The notes under the pieces are model-generated. The model made no database searches. It had not been told where the DNA came from and saw only the letters and a list, made by a program, of their open reading frames with translations. From Acidobacteriota bacterium (GTDB lineage: Bacteria > Acidobacteriota > UBA6911 > RPQK01 > DATIPO01): a DNA stretch of 64,000 nt. The stretch spans positions 9,340 through 73,339 of the forward strand of contig DATIPO010000065.1 of NCBI GenBank assembly GCA_035471925.1. Reading direction: 5' to 3'. The translations under genes and the position numbers were made by a program. Positions 1 to 63,449 of this stretch are shown piece by piece; position 1 is the stretch's first letter, and each line of letters opens with the position of its first letter.

Positions 1-1240
1 GCTTCTCGATTTGGCTGCGGGATACAAGGAAGGCAGCGGCGGCGCTGGCCAGAAGTCCGGCGTTGATGACCAGTGCGGTTGCGGGCGAGAGGCGCGAGGC
101 CGTCCAGCCGGTGGCTAGGTCGCCGACCGGCATCCCGCCCCGGAAGGAGAGCATGAAGACGCTCATGACCCGTCCCCGCATCTCGTCCTCCACCGCCAGT
201 TGGATGAGGGCGTTGATGGAGGCGATCAGCGTCAGCATCGACATTCCGCCCAGAAAGAGCAGGACGAAACTCAAAGGCAGCAGGCGCGACAGGGCGAAGC
301 CCACCAGAATGGCTGAAAAGAACAGCTCGATGATCAGCGTGACCAGTCCCCGGCGTTTCATGTCCGAGAAGTAGGCGTAGATGAGGGCGCCGGTGACCGA
401 TCCGGCGGCCGAAACGGTCATCATGTGTGAATAGGTCTGGGCGTCGCCGTTGAAGATGTCCCTGGCGAAAACCGGCAACTGGGTCAGCAGAGGAATGCCG
501 CAGAAGGCCGTGATGAAGCCCAGCAAGCTGAGTTGCCACAGGGCGGCCCTGTCGAAAAGGTAGCTGAGTCCGTGTCGGACATCGGCCAGTACCGAGCGGC
601 CGGTTTTCTGCGGCTTGAAGGAGGTCTCGATCAGATTGAGGGTGATGATGACGGCCACGAAGCTGAGCCCGTTGAAGGCGAAGCAAAGGACGGCGCCCAC
701 GTGCTCCAGCAGGATCCCGGCCAGAAAGGGACCCACCATGCGGGCCAGGTTGAATTGGGTCGAGTTGATGGCGATGGCGTTGGGCATGTCCTCGCGCGGA
801 ACCAGGTTGGGCAGAAGGGCCTGGTAAGCGGGTCCGCCGAAGGCTTGGGCCGTCCCCACGACGAAGACCAGCACCAGGAAGTGCCACAGAGCGATGACCT
901 CGAAGTAGACCAGCCCGGTGAGGATGAAGGCGCTGCTCATCTGCACGTACTGTGAGGCCAGCAGTTGCTTGCGGCGGTCCACCCGGTCGGCCACGGCACC
1001 GCCGATGAGGGTGAAGAGGATGAAGGGCAGCGATCCTAAGAATCCCACCAGACCCAGGTAAAACGGGTCGTTGGTCATTTCGTAGACCAGCCAGCCCTGG
1101 GCGATCTGCTGAGTCCAGGTGCCGGTGGTGGATGTGAAGGACCCCATCCACATCAGCCTGAAATCGCGGTGGGAGAATGCTCGGAACGTTTTCTTGACGA
1201 CGGAAGGTTGATCCGCTTCCGATTCCTTTTGGCCGTCCAT
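1..1240 (-). CDS. MFS transporter (EntS/enterobactin-exporter-like); N-terminus at 1240, C-terminus runs off the window start
   Basis: Reverse-complement translation from the ATG at 1240 gives MDGQKESEADQ...FRLMWMGSFTSTTGTWTQQIAQGWLVYEMT..., with 12-TM-like hydrophobic periodicity. It is open to the window edge. It was not in the ORF table; read directly from the sequence. Confidence 0.75.
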   Translation of the reverse strand, partial: MDGQKESEADQPSVVKKTFRAFSHRDFRLMWMGSFTSTTGTWTQQIAQGWLVYEMTNDPFYLGLVGFLGSLPFILFTLIGGAVADRVDRRKQLLASQYVQMSSAFILTGLVYFEVIALWHFLVLVFVVGTAQAFGGPAYQALLPNLVPREDMPNAIAINSTQFNLARMVGPFLAGILLEHVGAVLCFAFNGLSFVAVIITLNLIETSFKPQKTGRSVLADVRHGLSYLFDRAALWQLSLLGFITAFCGIPLLTQLPVFARDIFNGDAQTYSHMMTVSAAGSVTGALIYAYFSDMKRRGLVTLIIELFFSAILVGFALSRLLPLSFVLLFLGGMSMLTLIASINALIQLAVEDEMRGRVMSVFMLSFRGGMPVGDLATGWTASRLSPATALVINAGLLASAAAAFLVSRSQIEK

Positions 1241-1304
1241 CTCAGCGTAGATGCCTCTCTGGCTGTCGCGGATTCGCCTGAGTTCGTGGTATTTTCTTGC
1301 CCAA

Positions 1305-2324
1305 ATGGGCCTCTACGGACGAATCATGCACTGGCGCGAGAAGGTGTTGACCCGCAGGGACACCAACCGGCGCGTCTTCCCCTTTGAATGGGGATTGCAG
1401 TGGCTGGGTCTGGACAACAACGGTCATCCGCCTCTGCGCAAGCTGCAGGAGCTGTCCGGCGAAGCCGTCCAGAACTCCGACCGCTTTTTCGCTTTGCCTG
1501 AGAAGCATGTCAAAGCCCGCTGGCTCGATCAAGGCCGCGTGGTCGAGTTCGAGTCCCCCGCCGACTGCCTGCTGGAGCAGAACAACCTCGTCCGCTGCCG
1601 GGTTTTCGAGGCGCCTGATTCTCGGCGGGCGGTGGTCGTCCTGCCTCAGTGGAACGCCGACGAAGACAGCCACGTGGGGCTGTGCCGGATCCTTCAGCGG
1701 CTGGGAATCACCGCCGTGCGTCACGCTCTGCCCTTTCACGAGCACCGGCGTCCTCCGGGCATGGTGCGGGCCGACTACATGGTCAGCCCCAACATCGGAC
1801 GTACCATCCACGCGGTGCGTCAAGCCGTGCTGGAGACTCGCCGGCTAGTCCACTTGCTGCATGAAAAAGGCTATCAGCGGGTGGCTTTGATGGGCACCAG
1901 CATCGGTTCCTGCGTGGGCTTTCTCAGCTTTCTGCACGAGCCTCTGGCCCGTGTCGGAGTCTTTAATTTCGTCTCCGGATGGTTCGCCGACGTGGTTTGG
2001 CAGGGGAATGCCACCCGCTATGTACGGCGGGGACTGGAGCAGGAGATTAACCTTGAGGATCTGCGCCGCCTGTGGGCGCCCATCAGTCCCATGGCGTACG
2101 TGGAGAGAGCCGCCGCCGACACCCGTCGGCATCTGCTGATCTCGGCGCGCTATGATCTGACCTTCCTGCCTGAAATGAGTGAAGAGGTGTTTCAAGCCTA
2201 CCGCCGTCATGGACGCGAGCCGGAAGTGGCCTACCTGCCCTGCGGCCACTACACTACCGCCCGCTTTCCGTTCAAATACCTGGACGGCTGGCACATCTGC
2301 CGCTACCTCCACCGCCACCTCTAG
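1305..2324 (+). CDS. alpha/beta hydrolase fold protein
   Basis: ORF 1251..2324 contains the nucleophile-elbow-like motif GTSIGS. It is divergent from the MFS gene, so the start is probably an internal ATG (1305 or 1326). Confidence 0.65.
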   Translation: MGLYGRIMHWREKVLTRRDTNRRVFPFEWGLQWLGLDNNGHPPLRKLQELSGEAVQNSDRFFALPEKHVKARWLDQGRVVEFESPADCLLEQNNLVRCRVFEAPDSRRAVVVLPQWNADEDSHVGLCRILQRLGITAVRHALPFHEHRRPPGMVRADYMVSPNIGRTIHAVRQAVLETRRLVHLLHEKGYQRVALMGTSIGSCVGFLSFLHEPLARVGVFNFVSGWFADVVWQGNATRYVRRGLEQEINLEDLRRLWAPISPMAYVERAAADTRRHLLISARYDLTFLPEMSEEVFQAYRRHGREPEVAYLPCGHYTTARFPFKYLDGWHICRYLHRHL

Positions 2325-2889
2325 CCCGTTCTCGCGGGTTGTCGTCGCGAGGGGGCCGCCAGCGCCGCGATGACGAGGCGTCGCGACCGAGGCCCGCGGA
2401 GACCTGCTGTAGGGTACGTTGAGCATGCCGACCGAGGCCAATGCAGTCAGCGCGGATAGATGCGGCAACGCAGTACCGCCCGCGAGAGATATGGGCTAGC
2501 CCACCACGAGCTCTTGTATTGGGGACCGGGGCGGCAGAAAAATGAGATTTTTTCGGTCCTCGCCGAAGAATGTCAGAGGCGTCTGCTAGAGTCCTGGCCA
2601 TACTTCCAGGAGCTCCTGCCAACGATCCTGGAAGACTTGGAGAAGAGAAGGGCGTACATCAAGCCATCCAGCCTCTTTCAGCCTCTCTGCAAAAGCCTGG
2701 AACGCCCTTCTCTCCTTCCGGTTTCTTTCCCCCCGCCACATCTTGCAAGGTTTATTCACCCCTGCTGCGCTTTGCCTTTTTTCGTCCCCTGACCCAGAGT
2801 GGCATCGCTGCTCACAAGTGCAGGTCACAGGTACTGAAGAATGGCTCCAATTCACTTAGCCCAGGAGGGTAGTGCCTGCGTTGGCAGTC

Positions 2890-3350
2890 AGGGCCAAGTT
2901 CGCCGAAGGCGAGAGATGGGTCAGTGCTTTGCCGGTGGCTATGAAAGGCAGGCAGTCCTGGTGTCGAGAGCCAAGTTTGGGCTCGCCGTGGCAAGCGACA
3001 GGTGCTTCCTTCGCCAGATTCTAATGGAAGGCAAGCAGCCCGGTGTCGAGAACCAAGTCCGGGCTCGCTGTGGCGAGCCATGAGGTCCCGTCCCGCCAAA
3101 AGCGATGGTGGGCAGGCAGCCGGGTGTCGAGAACCAAGTCGGGGCCCGCTGTGGCGTGAGCCATAGAGCCGTCCTTCGCTAAAAGCCCCGGAGGGCAGGC
3201 GGCCAGGTGTCGAAAAGCAAGTCGGGGCTCGCTGAAGGCGAGCCATAGGCCAGCCCAGGGTGGAGCCCGCTGCGAGCGTAGCGCTGCAAGGGCGCAACCC
3301 TGGGTCTTGGCCAGAGGACGACCGAACGCTGAAAGCGTGCAATAGCGTCA
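2890..3350 (+). repeat. Structured intergenic repeat element, copy 1: ~3.7 tandem ~83-bp units plus a conserved ~100-bp terminal module
   Basis: Units carry a perfect hairpin (GGCTCGC-TGTG-GCGAGCC) within gtcgagaaccaagtccgggctcgctgtggcgagccat. The terminal module carries CCCAGGGT...ACCCTGGG and the aacgctgaaagcgtgcaatagcgt hairpin. It is homologous to 23395..23630 (inverted) and 63450..63915. Confidence 0.6.
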
Positions 3351-3381
3351 GGGGCTGGCTCGAATGGCTCGGCTTGCTACG

Positions 3382-4644
3382 CTAGTCGACCGTCTCGAGG
3401 TTGTTGGCCATGCGGACGGCTTCCTCGTAGGAGAGGGCGCGTTCCAGGTTGACGGTGGTCATGGCAGCCACCTTCTCGTAGGTTTCGCGAGCTTTCTCTT
3501 CTTGCCCGTCCTTATGATAGGCGCGGGCCAGGAGAAGCTGATGGAAGGCGTCGGTGGGGCTGGCTTGCTCCAGATGCTCGATGGCCGCGTCGATCTCGCC
3601 AGCTTCCAGCTTCACGTATCCGGCAAGGTAGTGGTAGGCCGCCTCGAAATTGACTGCTTGGGAGCCGCCTTCATCCAGGGCCTTGCGCATCCATTCCACT
3701 TCGGCCCAAGCCGCGTCGTCCTTGCCCATCTTAGCCAAGGTGCGGCCCTTGCCATGGTGGTAGCGCCCCGTCCAGATCTGGATTTGTTGCTCGGGCAGAC
3801 CGGAGCCTTCCAACGACTTGAGGCCCTTCTCATAGTCGGTCATGGCTTCTTCGAGGCGCCCGTTTTCCAAATTGATGCGGGCCCGCAGGTTGTGAATGAA
3901 GACGGTCGGGAAGGCTTGGGCATTGCCGGCTTCGATGTACCCGGCCAACGCCTGATCGACGGCGGACAAGGCCTTGTCGACGTGACCTTCGTGGACGTGG
4001 GTGAGAATGGTCCCGAAGTGGAGTCCGAAGGGGAAGTTGTCGGCCTTGGCCAGCCCCTTGCGGTAGGTCTTGCGGGCTTTGCCGTACTTGGAGTCCAGCA
4101 GTTGGCAGTTTCCGCGGAAGAAATAAATGCGCGGCGTGCTGTTGTCGAGCTTGAAGGCGCGGTCAAAAGACCGGCAGGCGGATTCGGCGTCGCTGCCCAT
4201 CGAAAGCTGTCCCACCAGCATGTGGGCGCGCCGCTCCTCGGGCCAGCCCCGGGCCATTTTCTGAAAGACCTCCAGAGCTTCAGGCAGGGTGCCGGCGCGG
4301 ATGTGTTTGACGCCCTCCAGATAGAGCTTCTCGCCCTCATTCAGGTTGGCGGCCAGTTCATCGGCCTTGGCCAGCATTTCCTGGGCCTGGGGATTGGGTT
4401 GAAACTGGCTGGCTACCATGTACCCGAAGGCCCACTCGGGATCGGCATCGATCAATTCCTGAGCCTTGGCGGCCAGGGCGGGTCCCGCCTGAAAGCTCTC
4501 GATGCCGTGGGTGATTTCGTCCACCAGCTCGACGGCCTTTTCAGAGTCGGATGAAAACTCAAGGGCTTTGCCGCCCGCGAAGGTCCAGCCGAAGGCCAGG
4601 AGTAGGATCGCCGCTGGCGCGGCACATTTGCTCACAAACTTCAT
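3382..4644 (-). CDS. secreted TPR-repeat protein
   Basis: 420-aa ORF with an N-terminal signal peptide (MKFVSKCAAPAAILLLAFGWTFAGG) and TPR-like helical repeats (AYHYLAGYV..., ARAYHKDGQ...). Confidence 0.7.
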   Translation of the reverse strand: MKFVSKCAAPAAILLLAFGWTFAGGKALEFSSDSEKAVELVDEITHGIESFQAGPALAAKAQELIDADPEWAFGYMVASQFQPNPQAQEMLAKADELAANLNEGEKLYLEGVKHIRAGTLPEALEVFQKMARGWPEERRAHMLVGQLSMGSDAESACRSFDRAFKLDNSTPRIYFFRGNCQLLDSKYGKARKTYRKGLAKADNFPFGLHFGTILTHVHEGHVDKALSAVDQALAGYIEAGNAQAFPTVFIHNLRARINLENGRLEEAMTDYEKGLKSLEGSGLPEQQIQIWTGRYHHGKGRTLAKMGKDDAAWAEVEWMRKALDEGGSQAVNFEAAYHYLAGYVKLEAGEIDAAIEHLEQASPTDAFHQLLLARAYHKDGQEEKARETYEKVAAMTTVNLERALSYEEAVRMANNLETVD

Positions 4645-4895
4645 GGTTGCGTCTCCTCCTTAACCGTGGTCGTCCTCCACCGTCGGCGAGAATGGATCCT
4701 TAATTCCGGGATTCCTGACAACAAACGTCGCCTCGCGCAGCTTCGTTCCCAAAAGATCTTCTGCCCCGGAGAGCGACGGGCAGCCGAGCCGGGGCCTTAA
4801 TGGCGCTCTCCGCTGAGCCTTGACCCGCGTCGGGATCTCGGTTTCGCTGCGGGCAGAGGCCGGAATTGGGTGGGTTGACTTCGGGCAGCGGGCAC

Positions 4896-4931
4896 AAAAA
4901 AAGACGCCTGATGCGGGCGGCACCAGGCGTC
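4896..4931 (-). terminator. Rho-independent terminator downstream of the Hsp20 gene
   Basis: On the minus strand a hairpin (gacgcctg...caggcgtc) is followed by TTTTTTT. Confidence 0.5.
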
Positions 4932-4996
4932 CTCGGGTTCGGACTCCGGCCGGGTCGCGTCTTCTCGCGACGCACCCGGGCCGAAGCAAGGCTCGG

Positions 4997-5413
4997 TCAT
5001 TTGACCTTGATGTCGATCTGCTTGGGCTTGGCTTCTTCCCGCTTGGGAAGAGTCAGCACCAGCAGCCCGTTTTTGAGGTTGGCGCTGATCTTGTCGGGAT
5101 CGATGTTGCGCGGCAGGGTGAAGCTGCGCTCGAAGCGGCCGTAGCTGCGCTCGATGCGGTGGTATTCTTCATCTTTGCGTTCCTGGGTGCGTTCACCCGA
5201 GAGGGTCAGGACGCCGTCCTCAACAGAAATGTCGATGTCGCCCTTGGCAAATCCCGGCAGTTCGGCGGTGAAGACCAGAGCATCGGTGTCTTCACTCACG
5301 TCCACGGCCGGCCTCCAGCCGCGGGAAGTCTCAGGATAGTTGCGGCTGAAAAAGTTGCTGAAAGCGTCATCGAAGAGCCGTTGTACGTCGTTGGTTCTCA
5401 TTAAGGTTGTCAT
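4997..5413 (-). CDS. Hsp20/alpha-crystallin small heat shock protein
   Basis: Alpha-crystallin domain (WRPAVDVSEDTDALVFTAELPGFAKGDIDISVEDGVLTLSGER...RSYGRFERSFTLP). Start is at the internal ATG MTTLMRTNDV with the RBS gaaggagga. Confidence 0.85.
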   Translation of the reverse strand: MTTLMRTNDVQRLFDDAFSNFFSRNYPETSRGWRPAVDVSEDTDALVFTAELPGFAKGDIDISVEDGVLTLSGERTQERKDEEYHRIERSYGRFERSFTLPRNIDPDKISANLKNGLLVLTLPKREEAKPKQIDIKVK

Positions 5414-5470
5414 GTCGTCTTCCTCCTTCGATCTATGTGAAATCAAGGTTGTTCGTGCCTTCGCGCTCGC

Positions 5471-5499
5471 TACATAAAATGCCTCTTGAGGGCTGTCAA
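5471..5499 (-). promoter_or_regulatory. Sigma70-like promoter of Hsp20 gene 1 (TTGACA-17-TATGTA)
   Basis: The minus-strand sequence cctcaccTTGACAgccctcaagaggcatttTATGTA lies ~55 nt upstream of the ATG. The extended motif GCCTCAC(C)TTGACAGCC is shared with the second Hsp20 promoter. Confidence 0.45.
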
Positions 5500-5615
5500 G
5501 GTGAGGCCGGCGACAAAGGCGGAACATCCGGCCTCAACCCAGAAAGCCCGGCGAAGGCGGCCTCCGCCGGGCTCGGGTCTCGGGTTCGCCCGGCGGCTTT
5601 GCCAGGCCTTTTCAA

Positions 5616-6059
5616 TCAGTGGACGTCGACCGCGATGTGGCGCGGCTTGGCCTCTTCGCGCTTGGGAATGGAGATGGTCAGCAGTCCATTCTTGAGCGAA
5701 GCGCTGATGTTGCCGGAATCAACGTTGGTGGGCAGCGCGAAGCTGCGCTCGAAGCGGCCGTAAGAGCGCTCTACGCGGTGGAACTGACGGCCTTCCTCCT
5801 GGCTCTCGCGCTGGCGTTCGCCGGAAACGGTGAGGGTGCCGTCTTCAACTGAGATGTTCAGGTCTTCCTTGTTGAAGCCCGGCACCTCGGCGGTGAAGGT
5901 CAGGCCCTCGGGGTCTTCGTGAATATCTACTGCGGGAAGCCATCCCTTTGAAGCTTCAGGGCGATGGCGGCTCGGCTCGAGGTCGTTGAAGACCCGGTCG
6001 AAAAGATCGTAGGGCGAAGTCGGTTGAGGCATCTGTCTGCGAATCTTCATTAAAGTCAT
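5616..6059 (-). CDS. Hsp20/alpha-crystallin small heat shock protein (paralogue)
   Basis: 147 aa (WLPAVDIHEDPEGLTFTAEVPGFNKEDLNISVEDGTLTVSGER...RSYGRFERSFALP); in tandem with 4997..5413. Confidence 0.85.
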   Translation of the reverse strand: MTLMKIRRQMPQPTSPYDLFDRVFNDLEPSRHRPEASKGWLPAVDIHEDPEGLTFTAEVPGFNKEDLNISVEDGTLTVSGERQRESQEEGRQFHRVERSYGRFERSFALPTNVDSGNISASLKNGLLTISIPKREEAKPRHIAVDVH

Positions 6060-6124
6060 GTAAGTTGGTCCTCCAGTTGGCTCGAATGTATTTAAAAGTA
6101 CTGCGTTTTTCGTCTACGTTTAGT

Positions 6125-6153
6125 GAGATAAGATGCCAGGAGGCGGCTGTCAA
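6125..6153 (-). promoter_or_regulatory. Sigma70-like promoter of Hsp20 gene 2 (TTGACA-17-TATCTC)
   Basis: The minus-strand sequence gcctcacTTGACAgccgcctcctggcatctTATCTC shares the same extended -35 context as the first Hsp20 promoter. Confidence 0.4.
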
Positions 6154-6207
6154 GTGAGGCGGGCAAAAAAATCGCATTTCTGCCCCAAATAGCTGAAAAA
6201 TAGAGGT

Positions 6208-7281
6208 TTAGGTCATCTGCAGGTAGGCTTCGGTGCCCAAGTCGGCTTGGCTCAGGGCATCGGTGAAGCTTTGCATGAGGGACATGCGTTGATCGTGGGG
6301 CAGGAAGGCCGAGCGGGCTCCTTGCAGGATGAGGCGGTGGAGCCCCTCCTGGGTCAGTCCGAAATGTTGGACGGCCAACAGGTACTCGTTGCTGATGGTG
6401 GTTTGAAAGAGTCCGGGGTCGTCGGTGTTGAGGCTGACGGCCAAGCCGCGCTTGAAGAGCAGGCCGAAGGGATTGTTGGAGACGGGCGCCCAGGAGCCGG
6501 TGCATTGGTTGCTGGTGAGGCAGACGTCGAGGCCCACCGGGTGGCCGCGCAGGTATTCGATGAGGCGTCCGTCGCGGGCCGCCTGGATGCCGTGGCCAAT
6601 GCGGTTGGCGCCCAGGACGCGCATGGCGTCCCACACTTGGTCGGGTCCCCCGGTTTCGCCCGCGTGGACGTGTATGAAGAGTCCGCGGGCCTTGGCCCGG
6701 CGGAAGACATCCTGGAAATCGCTCATGGGAAGGGAGTTCTCATCGCCGCCTAGTCCCAGTCCGCAGACGCCCCGCTGCTGATGCTCGACGGCCCACTGAG
6801 CGGTTTGCTCGGCTTCTTCGGGACCCCACTGGCGGACGCAGTCGAAGATCCAGCGAATGGAGACGGTCCCCTTGGATTCGATTTCGCCGGAACGTGTCAG
6901 CAAAGCGTCGATGACGGCCTCGGCGTCGAATCCGAACCGCTGAGGGATGGAAGGCGAGACGATGATCTCGGCGTAGCGGATGTGGTGCTGCTTGAAGTAG
7001 TCGCACAGGTGGTCGAGCAGCAGCAGATAGTCTTCAGGCTCGCGCAGGTGCTGGCACACCGTCTTGTAGGTGGAGAGAAAGTCGGCGAAGTCCTCATACT
7101 GGAAGAAGCGCCGGTGGACGTCAGCAACAGACAGGTCCTTGAGTTCCGTGTCGTACTTTTCGGCCAGCCCGATGAGGATGTCGGCCGTGGCCGAGCCCTC
7201 CAAATGGAGGTGCAGTTCGGCCTTGGGAACGCTCCTGATGCGCTCGTACAATTGCTCTGAAATGGCTTGGCGTTCCTTCAA
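6208..7281 (-). CDS. add: adenosine deaminase family protein
   Basis: Motifs ELHLHLEGS, HAGE and SLNTDDP. The ORF's ATG at 7419 overlaps the upstream gene by 115 nt. A TTG at 7281 preceded by AAGGAGG is the likelier start. Confidence 0.8.
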   Translation of the reverse strand: MKERQAISEQLYERIRSVPKAELHLHLEGSATADILIGLAEKYDTELKDLSVADVHRRFFQYEDFADFLSTYKTVCQHLREPEDYLLLLDHLCDYFKQHHIRYAEIIVSPSIPQRFGFDAEAVIDALLTRSGEIESKGTVSIRWIFDCVRQWGPEEAEQTAQWAVEHQQRGVCGLGLGGDENSLPMSDFQDVFRRAKARGLFIHVHAGETGGPDQVWDAMRVLGANRIGHGIQAARDGRLIEYLRGHPVGLDVCLTSNQCTGSWAPVSNNPFGLLFKRGLAVSLNTDDPGLFQTTISNEYLLAVQHFGLTQEGLHRLILQGARSAFLPHDQRMSLMQSFTDALSQADLGTEAYLQMT

Positions 7282-23304: not shown

Positions 23305-23394
23305 AACGCCCTTCCCGGATTCGTCCGGGGGTGCGGCGAAGGGTGGATCCCCGATTTGTCTTCCGACAAAACCGCCCTTCGCCGATTCTCTCCT

Positions 23395-23630
23395 TGCAGG
23401 GAATTGGCCAACGCTTAGTGCAGCGAGTCCCCTTCAAGCCGTCCTTCAACGCTATTCCACGCTTTCAGCGTTAAGAGATGTGGTCCCCTTGAACCCAGGG
23501 TGGCGCCGTCGTCTCGCTTCGCTCGAGGCGGCTGACCCTTGGGCTGGCATATGGCTCGCCTACAGCGAGCTTTCAACACAGCCGCCGGGCTGAAGTGTGG
23601 CTCGCCTGAGCGAGCCCGGACTCTTCAACA
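23395..23630 (-). repeat. Structured intergenic repeat element, copy 2 (inverted orientation)
   Basis: The reverse complement contains gctcgctgtaggcgagccatatgccagcccaagggtcagcc and aacgctgaaagcgtggaatagcgt. These nearly match copies 1 and 3. Confidence 0.55.
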
Positions 23631-27162: not shown

Positions 27163-27516
27163 ATGGCGAAGAAAGACGAGACGCTCAAGCCGCACTGGTT
27201 TCAGATCCTCCTGGCGCTGGGAGAGCGCGATCTTCACGGCTTGGGGATCATGCAGGACGTGCTGGAGCGCACCCAGGGCACGATGCACCTGTGGCCGGGG
27301 ATGCTGTACGGAGCACTCAAGGACCTGAGCGAACGGGGACTGATCGAAGAAGTCGAAGCGCCCAAGGACGCTGAGACAGGGGGCGGCAAGCCGCGTTTTT
27401 ACCAGTTGACCGAAGAGGGCCGGCGCCAAGCTTCGGCTGAGGCCCGCAAGCTGGAGTCCTACGTCGAGGCGGCCCGCTCGCGCAGACTGCTGGAACAGAA
27501 AGGGGAAGGCCGATGA
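27163..27516 (+). CDS. PadR-family transcriptional regulator
   Basis: HWFQILLALGERDLHGLGIMQDV...GMLYGALKDLSERGLIE; 4-nt overlap with the downstream permease. Confidence 0.85.
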   Translation: MAKKDETLKPHWFQILLALGERDLHGLGIMQDVLERTQGTMHLWPGMLYGALKDLSERGLIEEVEAPKDAETGGGKPRFYQLTEEGRRQASAEARKLESYVEAARSRRLLEQKGEGR

Positions 27517-30314
27517 GCCGCAAGCCTGAAAGGGCCAAGCCCGACCGAGCGTCCGCGCCTGAGAGCCCAGGGGCCCCTCTGCCGGGCTGGATGGAAGCCT
27601 ACTACCGTGTTCTCTTGCGGCTCTATCCCGTGTCTTTCCGGCGGCGCTTCGGCAGCGAAATGAAGACGCACTTCCGCCATCTGGCGGCGGATCGCCTCTC
27701 CCGTCGGGGCCGGCTGAGGGGAGGATTGGGCGTCCTTTGGCGCATGACGTCGGATTCTCTGCGGGGCGCCGCCCGCCTTCACTGGAGCGGCAGGAGGGGC
27801 CAGCCTTCCTCGGCGTCGGGCCGCTCCCCGGGCACCCGGACGGGTTGGCTGGGCGACATCCGCTACTCTTTGCGCTCGTTGCGCAGGCGTCCGCTGTGGA
27901 CGCTTTCGATTCTCTTGCTTCTAGCCTTGGGAATCGGCGCCAACGCCGCCATCTTCAGCACCGCCCGCTCCATCCTGCATGCTCCGTTGCCCTTCCCCGG
28001 TTCTGAGCGCCTGATGCTGGTCGAGAACCTGCACGAAGGCCGCACGGGTCCTCAGGTGGCCTACCAGGACTTCCAGGACATCGTGGAACAAACCCCCTCC
28101 TTGGAGAGCGGCGGTCTGGCCCTGTGGTACGCGGGGACGCTCCAGCATCACCAGCGGGCCGAGCGTCTGGACGGCTTTCAGGTCACGCCGGGGTTCTTTC
28201 GCGCCCTGGCCGCCGACTTCGCATTGGGATCGAATTTCAGCGACCAGGAGGCGGCCCGGGACCAAACAGTCATCATCAGCCACCGGCTGTGGCAGAGCCG
28301 CTTCGGAGGAACCCCCGACATTCTGGGGCGGGAAGTGGTCATAGACGGACGGCCGCGGAGCGTGATCGGAGTCCTGGCGCCTGGAGTCGATCTGCCCTAT
28401 CCGCGCAGCGGCAACGACTTGTGGCTGCCTCTGAACCGGGACCACCAGTTGGCCCAAAGCCGCGCCGTGTTCACCTTCTTCGCCTTCGTCCGGCTCAGGC
28501 CAGGGGCCTCGCTTGAAGCTTTGCGCCAGGAGTTGCGGACGGTGGCTTTGCGACTTCAGGAGGCCTATCCCGAGACCAACGCCGGACGATTCTACGTCGC
28601 CCGTCCCCTGCTGGAGGCGGCGGTGGGAGACGTCCGCCCGTCGCTTTGGCTGCTCTACGCCGCCGTCACGGTCCTGCTGCTGCTGGTGTGCGCCAATGTG
28701 GCCAACCTCTTGCTGGCCCGCTTCAGCGTCCGCCGCCACGAAGTGGCTTTGCGGGCGGCTCTGGGGGCCGGACGTTGGCGCCTGATGGCTCAGTTTCTGT
28801 GGGAGAGCCTGCTGCTCTCTGCCTCTGGAGCCGCTGCTGGACTCCTGCTGGCGCTGGGACTCGTGCGTTTGCTGCCTCTGCTGGCTCCGCCCGGAGTGCC
28901 CCGATTGGAAGAGGTCGCGCTGAGTTCCGACGTCCTGCTCTATGCCTGCGCGCTGGCCCTCCTGACGGGACTCGTCTTCGGACTGGCACCGGCCTGGAAA
29001 GCCGGGCGGACGCAAGCTCGCCGCTCTCTGGCCCAAGCCCATCCGCGAGGCTCAGGGGGCGCTTCGGGAGGCCTGCGAAGTGGACTTGTGGTGGCCGAAC
29101 TGGCGCTGGCCCTGACCCTCACTGTGGCGGCCGGACTGCTGCTGACCAGCATGGCGCAAGTGCTAAACCAGCCGCCCGGATTCCGCGTCGACTCCACCTT
29201 GACCTGGCGGCTTTCTCTGCCGCCCGACCAGTATCCCGATTTCGCCAGCATTCTGGACTTTCAACGCCGGCTGGCCGAGGGCATCGAATCCTTGCCGGGG
29301 GCACGCCGGTTGGCCTTCTCCACCAGCCTGCCCTTGAGCGGACACGACACCGGCTCGTCGCTGACTATCGAAGGACGGCCGGCAGTTCCCATCGCCGAGT
29401 TGCCCAGCGTGCGCTGGCAGGCCATCTCTCCGGGGGGATTCCGCGCGGCCGGAATCCAGTTGCTGGAAGGACGGACCTTTGGGCCGGCAGACCTCGGGAC
29501 TCAGTCGGTCCGAAGTTCCAATTCCCAAGGGTCCAACTCACAAGGGGCGGGCTCAGACTCTTCCGATGAGAACTCGCAGGAGCGGCACTTGGTGGTTGTC
29601 AACCGGGCTTTGGCCGAGCGCCACTTCCCTGAGGGAGCCATCGGCCAGCGCATCCAACTGGGAATCCCCAACGGCGACTGGCACGAGATTGTCGGTGTGG
29701 TGGGCGATGTCCGTCACCGGACTCTCGATCAGGCCCCCGATCCGCGCGCCTATGATCTCTTCGGACAACACGGCAGCCGCAGCTTTTTCGCCCTCCTGCA
29801 AACCGACGTTCCGGCGGCTTCGCTGGCCGATGCGGTCCGCGCCGAGGTGGGCGGCTTGGATCCCATGCTGCCCGCCTATGACCTGCGCAGCATGCGTGAG
29901 CGCGTCACCGACAGCCTCTCCGGACGCCGCTTTCTCCTCACCCTGCTGGGGGGCTTTGCGCTGCTGGCTTTGGTCCTGTGCGCCATCGGCGTCTACGGAC
30001 TTCTGGCCTTCGTGGTGCAGGAAAGGCGGGGCGAGATCGGCATCCGCCTGGCTTTGGGCGCGCGTCCCGAGGACGTGCGGCGGCTGATGCTGGGTCGCGG
30101 TGCCTGGCTGGCCGTTGCAGGCATTCTCCTGGGATTGCCGGCTCTCTGGGCCGCCTCCCGCTATCTGGCGGGGAGGCTCTATCAGGTTTCAGCCGGCGAC
30201 CCGGTGATCGTGGCGCTCTCCTGCCTGTTGCTGCTGGTGGTGGCCTTGACCGCCACTTATTTCCCGGCCCGCCGCGCCTCCCTCCTCGATCCCCAGGAGA
30301 CGCTCAGGGAATGA
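27513..30314 (+). CDS. ABC-transporter permease, MacB-like with duplicated FtsX domains (ADOP family)
   Basis: 933 aa with two MacB_PCD+FtsX modules (LRSLRRRPLWTLSILLLLALGIGANAAIFS...). Preceded by a PadR gene. Confidence 0.85.
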   Translation: MSRKPERAKPDRASAPESPGAPLPGWMEAYYRVLLRLYPVSFRRRFGSEMKTHFRHLAADRLSRRGRLRGGLGVLWRMTSDSLRGAARLHWSGRRGQPSSASGRSPGTRTGWLGDIRYSLRSLRRRPLWTLSILLLLALGIGANAAIFSTARSILHAPLPFPGSERLMLVENLHEGRTGPQVAYQDFQDIVEQTPSLESGGLALWYAGTLQHHQRAERLDGFQVTPGFFRALAADFALGSNFSDQEAARDQTVIISHRLWQSRFGGTPDILGREVVIDGRPRSVIGVLAPGVDLPYPRSGNDLWLPLNRDHQLAQSRAVFTFFAFVRLRPGASLEALRQELRTVALRLQEAYPETNAGRFYVARPLLEAAVGDVRPSLWLLYAAVTVLLLLVCANVANLLLARFSVRRHEVALRAALGAGRWRLMAQFLWESLLLSASGAAAGLLLALGLVRLLPLLAPPGVPRLEEVALSSDVLLYACALALLTGLVFGLAPAWKAGRTQARRSLAQAHPRGSGGASGGLRSGLVVAELALALTLTVAAGLLLTSMAQVLNQPPGFRVDSTLTWRLSLPPDQYPDFASILDFQRRLAEGIESLPGARRLAFSTSLPLSGHDTGSSLTIEGRPAVPIAELPSVRWQAISPGGFRAAGIQLLEGRTFGPADLGTQSVRSSNSQGSNSQGAGSDSSDENSQERHLVVVNRALAERHFPEGAIGQRIQLGIPNGDWHEIVGVVGDVRHRTLDQAPDPRAYDLFGQHGSRSFFALLQTDVPAASLADAVRAEVGGLDPMLPAYDLRSMRERVTDSLSGRRFLLTLLGGFALLALVLCAIGVYGLLAFVVQERRGEIGIRLALGARPEDVRRLMLGRGAWLAVAGILLGLPALWAASRYLAGRLYQVSAGDPVIVALSCLLLLVVALTATYFPARRASLLDPQETLRE

Positions 30315-32225: not shown

Positions 32226-34952
32226 TCATTCCGCACCCAAGGCCTGCACAGGATCGATGCGCGTGGCGCGGCGGGCTGGAGTGTAGCAGGGGAGCAGCGC
32301 CAGCAGGAAGACGATCAAGGCCACCGCAACCAGGGTCAAGGGATCGGCGGGGCTGACGCCGAAAAGCAGCGAGGCCAGAAAGCGCGAGAGGATCAAAGAG
32401 GTGGCCATCCCCGCAACCAGTCCCAGGGCCGCCAGGGCCAGTCCCTGGCGCAGGATGAGGGCCCGGATGTTGGAGGGGCGTCCCCCCAGGGCCATGCGCA
32501 CGCCGATTTCCCGCGTCCTCTGAGTGACGAAGGCGGAAATGACGCCGTAGATGCCCACCGCCGCCAACAGCAGTCCCAAAGCGGCGAAGGCCGCCAGAAG
32601 CAGCATGGGATAACGTTTGGGGGCCAGATTGGACTCCACCGCCCGCTCCAGCGGACGGAGATTGAAGACCGGCAACTGAGGATCGGCTGCCTTGACGGCG
32701 GAACGGATTTCCTGGGCCATGAATTGGGGTGAAAGCCCTCCCTCGGCCACCAAGACCATGGAGCGCGGTCCGCCCGTTTGCGCCAGCGGCACGAAGACCT
32801 GGTCGGCGGGTTCCTGTCCTACGGACCGGCTTTGCAGGCCTTCCACCACGCCCACGATTTCCCGCCAGGGTCCCTCCTCGGAAGGGCCCACGCGCTTGCC
32901 TACGGCATCCTCATCGGGCCAGTATCTTTGGGCCACTTGGCGATTGACGATGATGGTCGGCAAGCTGGACGAATCGTCCTGGCGGGTGAATAGGCGGCCC
33001 TGCAGCAGGCGGACATCCAGGGTGCGGAAAAATCCGGGCGAGACGGTCTTGACCTCGGCGCCCGGCTGTTTGCTTCCGGGAGTGGGCGGCTGATCTTCGA
33101 TGTAGAAGGTGGCGGTGCCTTGAATGGGATCGAGGGGAAGCCAGTCGATGAATCCCGCCGAGGTGATGCCGGGGCGTCCGCCCAGATCGTCGAGCACCTG
33201 CTGAAACAGGGCATGGCGCTGGGCGGGCTGGGCGTATTGGGCGGCGGGCAGCGAGATCTCGGCGCTCATGCGTTGTTCCACCGAGAAGCCCGGATCGACC
33301 TCAACCAAGTGAAGGAAGCTGCGCAGCAGGAGGCCGGCTCCGGTCAGCAGCACCACCGCCAGGGCCACCTCGCCCACCACCAGCAGGCGGCGCAAACCCA
33401 GTCCTCCAACCGCTCCGCCGCGTCCCGACTGGTGCAGGGCCGGCGAGAGTTCCCGGCCCAGGATCTTCCAGGCGGGCAGGATGCCGGTCGCCAGTCCCGC
33501 GGCCAGCGACAGGGCTAGAGCGGCCAACAGGGTGGGGGTGTTGAGTCCGCTGTTGTCGATAAGGGGAAAGCCCTCTGGCGCGGAGGTCAGCAGCAGCCGA
33601 AGCAGGGCTGCGGCCAAGAGGACGCCGGCGGCTCCACCCACCAGGCAGAGCAGTAACGATTCTCCCAGCAGTTGTCGCAGCAGCCGCAGCGGAGGCGCTC
33701 CGAAAGAGGCCCGCACCGCCACTTCGCGCATCCGCAAAGAGGACTGTGCCAGTTGCAAATTGGCCACGTTCACGCAGGCGATCAGGAGCAGGCATCCCAC
33801 AGCGGCCAGAAGCATCCACAGCGGGGCGCGGACGTTGGCGGTGTAGCGCTCGCGGAAGGGCACCAGTTGAGCGCTCCAGTCCACCCGGCGCAGGAAGTCG
33901 GCTCGGGAGGGCACGGTGGCGATGACGTTGGCGGCGATGGCGTCCATTTCGGCTTCAGCCTCCTCAAAGGAGACATCGGGCCTCAGGCGTCCCAGGACCC
34001 GCAGAAACTCGTTCCCGCGCTGGGAATCTTGCCGATGCGCCAGTGTGAAGGCGGCGGGACGATAGAGGTCGACTTGCGAGGAGGGAAGGTCGAACCCCTG
34101 AGGCATCACGCCCAGGACGGTGTAGGGACGGCCGTCCAGATGCAATGTCCTGCCCAGGGCCTCGGTTTGGCCCCCGAAACGGCGCTGCCAGAATCCATAG
34201 GACAGCACCGCCACGTCGTCCTGGCCCGGCTGGTCGTGGGACTCGTCGAAGAAGGTTCCCAGCAGCGGGTTCATGCCCAACACCTCGAAGTAGCTGGCCG
34301 TAACCCGGGCGGCCTTGACCCGGACGGGCTCGCCTTCGCCGGTCAGGTTGACGTCGCGCGTCCAGTAGGCGGCCAGGCTCTCCAACGTGCCGCTCGATTC
34401 CACCCGGTCGAAGTAGTCGGGCACCGAGTTGGCGGAAGGGTTGCCCTCGTACTCGTTGTGAATCCACACCAGGCGTTCAGCCTGGGGATAGGGCAGCGGA
34501 CGCAGCAGAATGCCGTAGAAGACGCTGAAGACCGTGGCGGTGCCTCCGATCCCCAGTGCCAGGGTCACGATGGTCAGCAGGGCGAAGGTGCGCCGGCGCG
34601 AGATCAGGCGCAGTCCGTAGCGGAAATCCTGGGTCCATCCTTGCAGAAAACGAGACATGTCACTTCCTCCGTCGAGTTTCCCGGGCGAGGCGGGAAGGCG
34701 CTTGAGCCCGGAAAGCGGTCTTTCGATCTTGTGCAGCCGCATGCCGAGATTGGAATCGTCCAGATGAGCCAACGCTTCACGCCGGGCCGCCTTGACCGTG
34801 AGTCCCCGTTGCCGCGACTCGCGGTAGACGTCCTCCAGATGATCCGAGAGTTCGGCTGAGATCTCAGCTCGGCGCGGACCGCTCAATCCGTCCAGGTGAG
34901 GTTCGATGAAAGGCTTCCAATCAGGCATCTTGAAATCCCGTGACTTGGTCAA
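32226..34952 (-). CDS. ABC-transporter permease, MacB-like duplicated FtsX (ADOP family)
   Basis: 908 aa (FRYGLRLISRRRTFALLTIVTLALGIGGTATVFS...). TTG start with a GGAGG RBS; overlaps the 3' end of the upstream PadR gene. Confidence 0.85.
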   Translation of the reverse strand: MTKSRDFKMPDWKPFIEPHLDGLSGPRRAEISAELSDHLEDVYRESRQRGLTVKAARREALAHLDDSNLGMRLHKIERPLSGLKRLPASPGKLDGGSDMSRFLQGWTQDFRYGLRLISRRRTFALLTIVTLALGIGGTATVFSVFYGILLRPLPYPQAERLVWIHNEYEGNPSANSVPDYFDRVESSGTLESLAAYWTRDVNLTGEGEPVRVKAARVTASYFEVLGMNPLLGTFFDESHDQPGQDDVAVLSYGFWQRRFGGQTEALGRTLHLDGRPYTVLGVMPQGFDLPSSQVDLYRPAAFTLAHRQDSQRGNEFLRVLGRLRPDVSFEEAEAEMDAIAANVIATVPSRADFLRRVDWSAQLVPFRERYTANVRAPLWMLLAAVGCLLLIACVNVANLQLAQSSLRMREVAVRASFGAPPLRLLRQLLGESLLLCLVGGAAGVLLAAALLRLLLTSAPEGFPLIDNSGLNTPTLLAALALSLAAGLATGILPAWKILGRELSPALHQSGRGGAVGGLGLRRLLVVGEVALAVVLLTGAGLLLRSFLHLVEVDPGFSVEQRMSAEISLPAAQYAQPAQRHALFQQVLDDLGGRPGITSAGFIDWLPLDPIQGTATFYIEDQPPTPGSKQPGAEVKTVSPGFFRTLDVRLLQGRLFTRQDDSSSLPTIIVNRQVAQRYWPDEDAVGKRVGPSEEGPWREIVGVVEGLQSRSVGQEPADQVFVPLAQTGGPRSMVLVAEGGLSPQFMAQEIRSAVKAADPQLPVFNLRPLERAVESNLAPKRYPMLLLAAFAALGLLLAAVGIYGVISAFVTQRTREIGVRMALGGRPSNIRALILRQGLALAALGLVAGMATSLILSRFLASLLFGVSPADPLTLVAVALIVFLLALLPCYTPARRATRIDPVQALGAE

Positions 34953-35283
34953 GGGCCTCCACGAAGCGTTTCCAACTGCGCCGCTGGCTGGCCAACATTT
35001 CGCCGCCCTTGGGAGTCAGCCGGTAATAGCGCCGCCGCCGCTGACCCGCCTTTTCCACCCAGCGTCCTTTGAGCAGCCCCTGCTTTTCCATGCGGTAGAG
35101 GATGGGGTAGAGCGAGGCGGCATGAAAACTCAGTTCTCCGCCCGAGCGGGACTCGATCCTCTTGGCAATGTCGTAGCCGTGGCGCGCTTCGCTCTCCAAG
35201 ATCGAAAGGATCAGCAATTGGGTGCTGCCGCGCTTCAATTCACGTTCCAAGTCGCTTTTTGTTCCCATATGTGGTGTCACCAT
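34921..35283 (-). CDS. PadR-family transcriptional regulator
   Basis: STQLLILSILESEARHGYDIAKRIESRSGGELSFHAASLYPILYRMEKQGLL. An imperfect palindrome (atatggtgacaccacatat) spans the first codons. Confidence 0.8.
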   Translation of the reverse strand: MVTPHMGTKSDLERELKRGSTQLLILSILESEARHGYDIAKRIESRSGGELSFHAASLYPILYRMEKQGLLKGRWVEKAGQRRRRYYRLTPKGGEMLASQRRSWKRFVEALDQVTGFQDA

Positions 35284-35357
35284 ATATTAACTGGCGCTTG
35301 CCCCGCATGCCAAGCCTTCGACTCGGCCCTGTTTGATTTGGTTGTATGAAAAAATCC

Positions 35358-35386
35358 TTGACAGATGGAAGTCCGGCTGCTAGTCT
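35358..35386 (+). promoter_or_regulatory. Candidate sigma70 promoter (TTGACA-17-TAGTCT) driving a short transcript
   Basis: Good -35 box with 17-bp spacing, ~55 nt upstream of a 44-codon sORF and ~215 nt upstream of a strong terminator. Confidence 0.35.
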
Positions 35387-35600
35387 GCGTCTCCTTTTTG
35401 TTGAAGCAGGCTCTGAAGCCGCTCTTTGAAGACGGAGAAGAATGATGTTGAGAAGCGAATACCAACCCTTTCAGCAGATCGCGCGGGAGTGCAATCCCAG
35501 GGCCGACATGTGTCTGCATGGATTGGCTGGTCTTAGTTTTGCGACTCCAACCGTCTTCAGGGATCCGCCCGGATAGACCGGGTTGAATTCAGGTTTTTAG

Positions 35601-35637
35601 AGCCCCGAAGACGGCAGGTCTTCGGGGCTTTTTTTAT
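35601..35637 (+). terminator. Strong Rho-independent terminator
   Basis: agccccgaagac-ggcag-gtcttcggggct hairpin followed by TTTTTTTA. Confidence 0.75.
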
Positions 35638-35728
35638 GCATTGAAGTTTTCCCCGGATGTCTGGCCGACGGCGTTCCCTTCTGAGTTGAGGTCGGGGCGT
35701 TCCGTAACGGTTTCAAGAAAGGCATCCA

Positions 35729-35800
35729 CCGTCGATAGCTCAACGGTAGAGCACTGGACTTTGGATCCAGCGGTTGCGGGTTCGAATCCCGCTCGTTCAA
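35729..35800 (+). tRNA. tRNA-like element (anticodon loop CTTTGGA, so UUG/Gln-like); acceptor stem has 3 mismatches, probable pseudogene or relic
   Basis: Canonical D-arm (TA-GCTC-AACGGTA-GAGC), anticodon stem CTGGA/TCCAG and T-arm GCGGG-TTCGAAT-CCCGC. The 5' strand ccgtcga against the 3' strand tcgttca gives only 4 of 7 pairs. No CCA. Confidence 0.35.
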
Positions 35801-36248
35801 GTTGCCTGACAAGCAACCAACAGGCTCGAGAGAGCCACCGAAAGCGGCCGGGGGCGCGTGAGAACGGGAGACTCCAGCCGTCCGCAGAGGGCCGGACGGA
35901 AGCCATCGGGCTTCCCTGACGGCCTCTGTGGGTCGGCACTGCAGAGGAGGCCTAGAAGGCCAAGGGATACCGCCGTTTCCCAATCCGTGGCGGGCTGGGC
36001 GGACGGTGCTTTCGAAGTCTGGCACAGTGCCGGGACTCAGGAAGCGCCTAAAGCACGGTCCAAAGCGGGGAGTGAGGCGGCTCAACTTGGCCTCCGCCGC
36101 CGAAGCAGGGAGTTTCCGGGGATCGGCGCTCCCGGCTGTCAAAACTCGGCCGCCGGGTATCGACCGGAAAAGGTTTCCGCCGCCGCGGCTCCCGACCGCG
36201 GCAGCGGATGTAGCGAAAAGAGAACTTCGGGAGAAAGGAGCAGCAGCC

Positions 36249-40695: not shown

Positions 40696-41952
40696 CTACT
40701 GCTGCTCGGCGGACACTTCCAGACTGCGGCTGGCCAAGACTTCGCGCTTGCGCACGTAGCGGACCTCGTATTGGCCGGGGGCGCTGGGAGCGAAGAGCGT
40801 AGCCGGGTTGCCGGCACTGCTCAAGGCGCGGCTCTCGTAGGAGTTGGCCGGCTCGTCCTTCTTGGCGATGGCGATGAAGTCTCCTTGGTCGTTGGGTCCC
40901 GTCCAAGTCACTTCGATCGTTGAACTGGGCGCCGCCTTTTCGGGAGCGTCCAGGCTGGCGCTGATGGGTTTCACCAGCAGGGGACGTTTGGCCAAAGTCT
41001 GCTTGGACTGCGACAGCACATAGCGGATTTCATACTGGCCCGGCGTCTCAGGCCCGCGCACGGTGAGAGGGCTGCCTTGGCGCGTGTACGTGTATTTCCC
41101 TGATGTGCCCTCGGGACTGCCCGACTCCACTATGGCGATGTAGTCGTTGTGGTTGTCGGGGCCCGTCCAGGTCACTTCGACCGGCACCTCCACCATGCTC
41201 TCTTCTGGCGCGGTCAAGCTGGCTTCCACAGCCGTCACCTCGATGGGAACGCTGGCCAGCGTGCGCTTGGACTGCGACATCACATAGCGGACTTCATAAT
41301 CGCCCGGCGTTTCCGCGGCTCGGATTTCCAAGGGACTGCCTCTGCGGGTGTAGGTGTAGTCCTCATGCGCGCCTTCGTCCGCAGCGGCGGGGACCACCGT
41401 GATGTAGTCGTTGTGATTGTCGGGACCCGTCCAGGTCACCGCGAAAGTGGCCCCTGCCCCCACCTGCTCAGGAGCCTCCAACGTGGCCTCCACCTCCGTC
41501 ACGGTCAAGGGGGCGCTGACCAGCGTTTCCTTGGTGGCGTTGGACACGTAGCGGACTTCGTACTCGCCGGGACTCTCGGAAACCGTCAACTCCAGAGGAG
41601 TGCCGTTGCGCGTGTAAGTGTAGTCTTGATGGGTGCCCTGTGCGGCGCCCTTCTCGACCACCGTGATGTAGTCGTTTTTTTCGTCCGGCCCCGTCCAGGC
41701 CACTTGAATGGCCGATCCCGCCGGAGCTTCCGCGGGCGTCTCAAGAGTCGCCTCCTCGCCCTCGGTGGTCACGGATTCCACTTGGGCGGGCGCGTCCGCC
41801 GAGTCGGACGGTGCATCTGACGGGGTGCCTTCGCCAGAAGTCGCCTCGGACCCAGCTCCCGCCTCGGCTTCCTCGGCGGGCTCTCCTCCGCCGCAGGCCG
41901 AGAAAACCAGAACCGCGGCACACAAAAGAACAACACAGCGCAACTTAGTCAT
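40696..41952 (-). CDS. lipoprotein with four tandem ~75-aa repeats
   Basis: Signal plus lipobox (LVFSAC). Repeats of VTWTGPDNHNDYITVV...YTYTRxGSPLxxRxPETPGxYEVRYV occur four times. Confidence 0.7.
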   Translation of the reverse strand: MTKLRCVVLLCAAVLVFSACGGGEPAEEAEAGAGSEATSGEGTPSDAPSDSADAPAQVESVTTEGEEATLETPAEAPAGSAIQVAWTGPDEKNDYITVVEKGAAQGTHQDYTYTRNGTPLELTVSESPGEYEVRYVSNATKETLVSAPLTVTEVEATLEAPEQVGAGATFAVTWTGPDNHNDYITVVPAAADEGAHEDYTYTRRGSPLEIRAAETPGDYEVRYVMSQSKRTLASVPIEVTAVEASLTAPEESMVEVPVEVTWTGPDNHNDYIAIVESGSPEGTSGKYTYTRQGSPLTVRGPETPGQYEIRYVLSQSKQTLAKRPLLVKPISASLDAPEKAAPSSTIEVTWTGPNDQGDFIAIAKKDEPANSYESRALSSAGNPATLFAPSAPGQYEVRYVRKREVLASRSLEVSAEQQ

Positions 41953-63446: not shown

Positions 63447-63449
63447 CCG

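Follow-up and report, generated by a model that had tools for sequence, protein, structure and literature searches.

We found that a 64-kb stretch of DNA from an uncultured member of the Acidobacteriota, a metagenome-assembled genome (MAG) with a host GC content of 62%, contains three copies of one composite intergenic element. The copies in this stretch, hereafter the window, lie at 2884-3381 (+; locus A), 23414-23630 (-; locus B), and 63447-63942 (+; locus C), and each is built, in its own orientation, of direct tandem units, then a terminal module of ~100 nt, then a tail of ~33 nt. The composite repeat family is real and has no match among known families, and it is non-coding, since its unit lengths vary from 32 to 83 nt and the open reading frames (ORFs) that cross it have no homologues. 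On present evidence we have a new family belonging to a familiar kind, and not a new principle. It is probably, though with considerable room for doubt, an interspersed mosaic repeat, lineage-specific and non-autonomous, of the BOX, NIME, or REP-cluster kind, and in design it comes closest to BOX.

The composite repeat and its three copies

A preliminary description of this DNA, made from the sequence itself, had proposed a composite element common to the three loci, and pattern, profile, and tandem-repeat searches concur in finding it there. The 24-mer AACGCTGAAAGCGTGCAATAGCGT, which lies within the module, occurs three times in the window at one mismatch or fewer, with no occurrence expected from shuffled sequence, in agreement with the earlier count of one mismatch across copies in the small hairpin. 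The unit core CAAGTCCGGGCTCGCTG has nine matches, all within loci A, B, and C, compared with 0.56 expected. A profile of the terminal module matches these three loci only (E values of 6e-27 to 4e-30), and the modules are 66 to 78% identical in pairwise comparison. Two covariance models, run with filters off, agreed with the profile and revealed no extra copy across the 64 kb. Tandem Repeats Finder (TRF) reported a period of 83 with 3.7 copies at locus A and a period of 60 with 3.6 copies at locus C. The GC content of the elements is 60 to 66%.

An independent short-read assembly of the same organism (Logan, run SRR9656207) matches 59 nt of the 3' end of element A, comprising the 24-mer and tail, exactly, and also recovers the first 192 nt of element C with 3 single-nucleotide polymorphisms (SNPs); thus, the element sequences are not an artefact of a single assembly. 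The two Logan contigs correspond to positions 3323-6592 and 60186-63638 of the window, and both break off inside elements (A and C), as is expected of repeats or hypervariable DNA. These breaks, and the origin of the sequence from a MAG, could be taken to mean that the similarity reflects chance resemblance of GC-rich motifs or faulty assembly. However, module E values of 1e-27 to 1e-30, the result of the shuffles, the Logan sequences, and the intact flanking genes on both sides of every copy speak against this explanation, which we consider effectively refuted and scarcely credible; the exact tandem copy numbers are the sole part that would still be uncertain under it.

The number of tandem units is 5 at locus A, 2 at locus B, and 6 at locus C, all head-to-tail within their locus (Table 1). 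The arrays had been described as 2 to 5 units of 60 to 85 bp each; tandem arrays are indeed present, but the units of locus B measure 50 and 32 nt and locus C has six. Units A0 to A4 are 63, 82, 82, 83, and 55 nt long, and units C0 to C5 are 58 to 65 nt each. The stem-loop proposed for each unit was recovered as a GCTCGC-(3-6 nt)-GCGAGC hairpin in 11 units; it is extendable to 7 bp and is flanked on all canonical units by CAAGTC(C/G)GG on the 5' side and CATA(T/G)G on the 3' side. At locus A, units A1 to A4 carry a CAAGTCNGGGCTCGC-loop-GCGAGCC hairpin, imperfect in A1 and A3, and at locus C the unit hairpins retain pairing via G-U wobbles. The degenerate units, A0, C0, and C1, are those most distant from the module.

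The module opens with GCCAGCCCAGGGT and forms a long hairpin closed by CCCAGGGT and ACCCTGGG, followed by ~20 nt, a small hairpin (ACGCT-GAA-AGCGT), and then GCAATAGCGT. The long-range pairing of CCCAGGGT with ACCCTGGG, which had been predicted, is exact in A and C, and B reads CCCAAGGGT, with one bulged A. All three loci lie where the preliminary description had placed them, but the element is longer than was stated there, as homology continues for ~33 nt past the 24-mer to 3381, 63942, and ~23414. Similarity between the copies stops after this tail, and the element 5' ends of the three loci do not align; the element is therefore sharply bounded and conserved at its 3' end but ragged at its 5' end. 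The tail ends 0 nt from the stop codon of the convergent gene at locus A and 1 nt from it at locus C (stop at 63944-63946), and the first unit of locus C begins directly after the TAA stop (63444-63446) of the P460-cupredoxin gene. A tRNA origin of the module was rejected: ARAGORN finds no tRNA, and no T-arm precedes the GCGCCA motif.

Table 1. Positions of the repeat elements, their parts and neighbouring genes, and of the related features on metagenome contig L001
Locus	Feature	Position	Strand	Details
A	Degenerate distal unit A0	2884-2946	+	short hairpin TTCGCCGAAGGCGA
A	Four tandem units	2947-3248	+	period 81-83 nt (TRF)
A	Units A1 to A4	A1 2947-3028, A2 3029-3110, A3 3111-3193, A4 3194-3248	+	
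A	Terminal module	3249-3348	+	long hairpin 3249-3313 (CCCAGGGT/ACCCTGGG core); 24-mer small hairpin 3325-3348
A	3' tail	3349-3381	+	ends in ...GGCTTGCTACG; abuts stop codon of TPR gene, 3382-3384 (-)
A	Neighbours			357-aa gene without Pfam match (and ~560 nt of other non-coding DNA) / TPR gene
B	Two units with perfect GCTCGC/GCGAGC hairpins	23549-23630	-	B1 23630-23581 (50 nt), B2 23580-23549 (32 nt)
B	Terminal module	23449-23548	-	CCCAAGGGT...ACCCTGGG hairpin; 24-mer 23472-23449
B	3' tail	23414-23448	-	
B	Neighbours			TolB-amidohydrolase / conserved 186-209-aa hypothetical gene
C	Two degenerate distal units	63447-63563	+	C0 63447-63504, C1 63505-63563
C	Four canonical units	63564-63809	+	period 60-65 nt (TRF)
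C	Units C2 to C5	C2 63564-63628, C3 63629-63688, C4 63689-63749, C5 63750-63809	+	
C	Terminal module	63810-63908	+	24-mer 63885-63908
C	3' tail	63909-63942	+	own hairpin AGCGAAA-ACTG-TTTCGCT, then ...CGCTTGCTCGC
C	Neighbours			P460-cupredoxin gene / membrane-protein gene (minus strand, runs off window)
A, B, C	24-mer AACGCTGAAAGCGTGCAATAGCGT	3325-3348, 23449-23472, 63885-63908	+, -, +	pattern scan
L001	Region of JACZDD010253017.1	599-2209		tRNA-Ser(CGA), CGCCACCCT-N26-AACGCTGTCAGCGTGCAATAGCGT, tyrosine-integrase gene, second diverged copy
L001	Site 1	688-746		fused to 3' end of tRNA-Ser
L001	Phage_integrase-family gene	750-2126		just downstream of site 1
L001	Site 2	2102-2209		diverged copy right after integrase gene

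The 24-mer is 96 to 100% identical between the modules, and the base of the long hairpin (GCCAGCCCA.GG / GGCGC.ACCCTGGGT) and its apical CGAGCG.AGCG are likewise conserved. Such strong conservation amid diverged copies is the mark of a recognition site, for which a transposase, a recombinase, or a host protein are candidate readers. Units are 75 to 98% identical over their full length within a locus (A2/A3, 88%; C3/C4, 98%), while units of different loci diverge in length, linker, and sequence outside the core. From this pattern we infer local amplification and homogenisation of the tandem arrays. The Logan contig differs from the window by 3 SNPs over 192 nt of element C but by 4 over 3261 nt of the flanking genes (Fisher p = 0.005), and this excess indicates that the distal units evolve fast or are weakly constrained. 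Among the 7 SNPs between this contig and the window, 3 of which fall within the repeat, 63592 T>C makes unit C2 resemble C3 to C5, a pattern that suggests either conversion between units or strain variation. Variable-number arrays of this type could serve strain typing; the elements also break short-read assemblies and give rise to spurious ORFs of 92 to 176 aa.

Distribution, genomic placement, and probable class

The preliminary description had recognised no known family in this sequence, and the Rfam searches gave the same answer. At gathering level, Rfam 15 found no family in the elements in a search of the whole window, where its sole match is a tRNA at 35733, and in E-value mode the best match for loci A and C was Acido-Lenti-1, at 13 bits, where the gathering score is 37. 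The 24-mer, once its variable positions were masked, has no match in 185,579 species-representative genomes and none in the IMG/VR viral contigs; in the JGI metagenome collection it has one, on contig L001, with about one expected by chance for 20 specified bases. BLASTN in distant mode found no match for locus C in plasmids or for locus A in phages. To catch spurious gene calls on other copies, we searched the element ORFs as proteins, and a 176-aa ORF spanning locus A and a 92-aa ORF over the locus C units and module had no homologues among 5.8 billion and 1.84 billion proteins. Profile searches with nhmmer and the two covariance models found no further copies in 23 loci (323 kb) of relatives. 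From public data, the family thus appears to be confined to its lineage. Outside model bacteria, few small interspersed repeats have been well catalogued, and for the uncultured acidobacterial lineage studied here we found no description of any.

Each of the copies lies between convergent genes, as had been reported. Convergent junctions make up ~11 of 47 junctions on a crude gene map, which gives p ~0.013 for finding 3 of 3 copies there. BOX, RUP, and SPRITE repeats share this bias, which has been interpreted to mean that parasitic insertions are tolerated there (PMC3049150). The flanking genes are intact at both sides of each copy and are functionally unrelated between the three loci; the label "abhydrolase" given earlier to the gene beside locus A was not confirmed, as this 357-aa gene has no Pfam match. 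The window TolB-amidohydrolase protein is 100% identical to NCBI HSR50189.1. A Pfam search of the ~45 window proteins detected no transposase, RAYT, or integrase. In the ~560 nt between the 357-aa gene and element A (2324-2884), the only ORF is a weak one at 2460-2792 (no Pfam match; GC content at third codon positions, 0.64). This stretch, which has no relation to the repeat family, also includes a long imperfect hairpin (2630-2725; z = -3.65) that leads into a U-rich run. On the far side of locus B, two strong hairpins at 23305-23400 (+; z = -3.6), followed by a U-rich stretch, come after the stop of the 186-209-aa hypothetical gene and are probably that gene's own terminator, outside element B.

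The closest relative available, GCA_035471785.1, has 83% amino acid identity in the TolB-amidohydrolase, and its genes in this region are arranged as in the window (TolB-amidohydrolase, convergent small gene, TPR, UvrD, SRAP, methyltransferase). Where the window has 367 bp at locus B, the relative has an orthologous gap of 87 bp, which contains a terminator-like hairpin only; neither unit nor module was found across the 23 kb retrieved. The absence of the element from the relative's gap, together with the retention of the neighbour's own hairpins in the window, marks element B as something added to an intergenic region that is complete without it, which fits a lineage-specific insertion and argues against element B being a conserved part of either flanking gene. 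TolB-amidohydrolase orthologues at 63 to 67% identity have lost the flanking synteny and are therefore uninformative.

If the element is a mosaic repeat of the BOX, NIME, or REP-cluster kind, an ancestral element composed of one or more hairpin units, the two-hairpin terminal module, and the tail would have been copied to several chromosomal sites by machinery encoded elsewhere. Copies would survive only where genes and promoters stay unbroken, namely in the narrow spaces that separate convergent genes. Following insertion, the unit arrays may have grown and been homogenised locally by slippage or unequal recombination, as the unit identities suggest, with the distal units decaying. Constraint would act on the 24-mer, on the long hairpin's base, and on the hairpins of the units, and the likeliest reason is that they are read as a DNA or RNA hairpin by the copying or recognition machinery or by a host protein. 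Upon read-through, the hairpins would land in 3' untranslated regions (UTRs) and may impede 3' exonucleases or convergent read-through as a side effect.

Several points weigh against this scenario. No terminal inverted repeats (TIRs), target-site duplication, or mobilising enzyme were found, and the mechanism of mobility is wholly inferred, as are mobility itself, the direction of the change at locus B (insertion or deletion), the array dynamics, and any function. The copies examined are three, from one 64-kb window, and the single empty site in one relative fits precise loss there as well as insertion here. Spread beyond the lineage is unsupported, save for the uncertain relative on L001. Finally, a conserved core in otherwise diverged copies is equally compatible with an in situ host function. 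The elements might be host-evolved structural or protein-binding sites at convergent ends, like the nucleoid-protein or gyrase targets on BIMEs, amplified in situ and non-mobile. Such sites would explain the placement exclusively at convergent junctions, the conserved palindromes and 24-mer, and the lack of transposase signatures. However, the same module and tail, together ~130 nt, occur in both orientations at three unrelated sites, which requires copying between sites, and the orthologous site of the relative is without the element; we regard this explanation as distinctly unlikely.

Among known repeats, the pneumococcal BOX was reportedly described by Martin in 1992 as boxA-boxB(n)-boxC. 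This layout is also given by Croucher 2011 (PMC3049150). Both BOX and our element are composite, non-coding, 100 to 500 nt long, rich in predicted hairpins, and found in one species group; both have a variable number of direct tandem internal modules beside a conserved terminal module; and both are over-represented between convergent genes (for BOX, PMC3049150). In contrast to BOX, to which it has no sequence relationship (none being expected), our element resides in a 62% GC acidobacterium and has no conserved 5' module, and so no boxA equivalent, and no end-to-end pairing.

REPs are defined as imperfect palindromes of 20 to 40 nt that bear an unpaired GTAG or CGTC tetranucleotide at one end of the stem and occur mostly in head-to-head or tail-to-tail dimers or clusters (Di Nocera 2013, PMC3733652). 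The element shares with REPs and BIMEs short imperfect palindromes (7-bp stem, 4- to 6-nt loop) with conserved flanks (CAAGTC... on the 5' side, ...CATA on the 3' side), with such a palindrome in 11 units, and it is clustered, extragenic, and located 3' of genes. In contrast, its units have no GTAG or CGTC tag, run head-to-tail with a repeated linker of 30 to 60 nt, and are joined to an extra module and tail of ~130 nt, and no RAYT is present among the window proteins. Assignment to the GTAG/CGTC REPs or BIMEs was rejected on the grounds of the missing tag and the head-to-tail units; the resemblance noted in the preliminary description holds for the siting at convergent gene ends, as in REP-, BIME-, and BOX-type repeats, but not for the tag or the arrangement of units.

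NIME of Neisseria and RIME of Rhizobium resemble the element in forming mosaic arrays of repeat blocks that are intergenic, near gene 3' ends, and locally shuffled and amplified, but NIMEs are RS blocks bracketed by dRS3 inverted repeats, whereas our element has a single polar 3' module and no brackets. The MIRUs of Mycobacterium also have 40- to 100-bp units in variable tandem arrays at several dispersed intergenic loci. MIRUs, however, lie inside operons with small overlapping ORFs, and the element lies between convergent genes, is centred on hairpins, and is joined to a unique terminal module; a MIRU-type minisatellite was rejected on the convergent siting and on unit lengths that are not multiples of 3.

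The element is also small, non-autonomous, structured, and present or absent at orthologous sites, as are MITEs (miniature inverted-repeat transposable elements), a class that the preliminary description had suggested. Unlike MITEs, it has no consistent TIRs and is not AT-rich, no target-site duplication is visible, and no partner insertion sequence was identified. Candidate TIRs (GCGAGCAGGCG/CGCTTGCTCGC at C and CCGGCCTTCAA/TTGAAGGACGG at B) differ in sequence and position between loci, and an inverted match of 10/11 is expected by chance about once per 500-nt locus; no TIRs are common to all copies, the inverted end matches being locus-specific and at chance level. No direct repeat was found at the mapped ends, where the 5' ends are ragged and the relative's empty site is too diverged to align. 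A classical MITE was therefore rejected. A CRISPR array was rejected as well, because the segments between the hairpins are themselves repeated and Pfam detects no cas genes in the window, and readings as an iteron, group II intron domain V, retron, or attC were dropped for lack of reverse transcriptase, spacers, cas genes, or Rfam support.

Hairpins as RNA or DNA structures and a possible link to a tyrosine recombinase

The z scores for RNA folding of the module are -4.5 at A, -0.7 at B, and -1.9 at C. Both strands of the element fold about equally well, and DNA folding parameters yield the same hairpins as RNA folding. Among the three window copies, 2 of the 24 predicted module pairs stay paired through changes on both sides, and the inner helices of the module use different registers between copies. 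On the element strand, ~4-5 independent transitions in the unit stems produce G-U and 2 produce C-A, which is not a significant difference. We conclude that the helices matter and that the data are compatible with RNA, single-stranded DNA, or cruciform alike. The stems had been read earlier as a sign of RNA-level function; the stem-loops are indeed conserved, but the small number of two-sided changes and the statistics of the wobbles do not single out RNA, and the palindromes would equally fit recognition as single-stranded DNA or as a cruciform.

One explanation, in our assessment unlikely, is a functional structured RNA (a 3'-UTR element or a small RNA family) whose hairpins would be selected for setting or protecting the 3' ends of mRNA, or for insulating convergent units. 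Consistent with such an RNA, the predicted two-hairpin architecture is kept in all three copies, if with variable stability; pairs changed on both sides comprise the two in the window and, once site 2 of L001 is added, three CG-to-UA compensatory pairs; on the element strand, several hairpin variants give G-U wobbles; the 24-mer is far better conserved than its surroundings; and the element always comes directly after the stop codon of a co-oriented gene (at locus A, with the ~560 nt of other non-coding DNA in between). On the other hand, there is no Rfam match, promoter, or U-tract terminator, and the orthologous site of the closest relative lacks the element despite conserved flanking genes. 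The flanking gene sets, which are unrelated in function, the wobble asymmetry, the varying inner helix registers, and the folding of both strands and of DNA into the same hairpins also speak against it.

Scans of the three elements found no GC-rich hairpin with a T-run on either strand and no sigma-70-like promoter. A canonical intrinsic (Rho-independent) terminator was rejected, since no T-run follows any hairpin on either strand, and the earlier comparison with bidirectional terminators fails for the same reason; at locus B, moreover, the neighbouring gene has a strong hairpin of its own beyond the element. The element could possibly act at the RNA level or as a terminator, and effects on mRNA 3' ends or on convergent read-through are plausible.

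On contig L001, the motif CGCCACCCT lies upstream of the 24-mer at a distance equal to that in the window module and overlaps the CCA end of the tRNA-Ser gene, and this 9-bp sequence is present as a direct repeat flanking the integrase gene. Site 2 folds as a long hairpin plus a small hairpin, like the window modules, with three C-G to U-A compensatory pairs relative to them, and its score with the window-only model is just 10.6 bits. These features suggest, as a candidate lead from one contig, that the module architecture may exist in other bacteria, tied to a tyrosine recombinase.

A tyrosine recombinase that moves or rearranges cassettes could on this basis use the module as an att-like or arm-type site, with CGCCACCCT as the core, a spacer of ~25 nt, and the ACGCT/AGCGT hairpin with its repeated AGCGT. 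This would agree with the same layout appearing twice on L001, on either side of a Phage_integrase-family gene, with the shared two-hairpin fold and compensatory changes of site 2, and with the 9-mer at the module offset from the 24-mer. However, it was the 24-mer itself that singled out L001, from a collection expected to yield about one match by chance, and the added similarity is modest (local-alignment p = 0.04-0.06 before the positional argument). There is also no integrase in the window, no relatives of the L001 integrase were found in viral contigs, and the window copies have no flanking direct repeats, and so we consider such a site very improbable. We also think it quite improbable that the long hairpin with its 3' strand CGCCACCCTG, the spacer, and the ACGCT/AGCGT hairpin form a recognition structure common to distant bacteria and read by a tyrosine recombinase, or alternatively a new structured 3'-end RNA. 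Were the recombinase interpretation true, the elements would be integrase-mobilised miniature cassettes with self-expanding hairpin arrays, and if the link to the L001 integrase holds, this would be an unusual way of mobilising miniature elements. We know of no description of integrase-driven mobilisation for small interspersed repeats.

Other features of the window

The 645-nt gap at 35283-35928 contains the tRNA-like sequence matched by Rfam (35733-35795, +; anticodon UUG; 58.6 bits). The match covers model positions 5-66 only, its acceptor stem is unpaired, and no part of the window is called as a tRNA by ARAGORN; we take the sequence to be a probable tRNA fragment or pseudogene. A candidate unannotated small RNA lies at ~35350-35640 (+), with a promoter-like pair, TTGACA...TAGTCT, near 35360-35390 and a textbook intrinsic terminator at 35600-35637 (14-bp GC stem followed by TTTTTTT; fold z = -7); this candidate has no Rfam match.

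Upstream of locus C, two adjacent cytochrome P460 genes occupy 61637-63446 (+), the second of which is fused to a cupredoxin domain via a long low-complexity linker; the closest homologues of this fusion span only about half of the protein. Coding tandem repeats with periods of 264 and 240 nt are found at 40696-41952 (-) and 46117-48456 (-), respectively, in large surface proteins with Ig-like domains, and are unrelated to the intergenic repeat. The window also encodes two adjacent HSP20 paralogues (4997-6059) and three paralogous MacB/FtsX-type permeases (27163-30314, 32226-35283, and 53936-56830), two of which are paired with PadR regulators.

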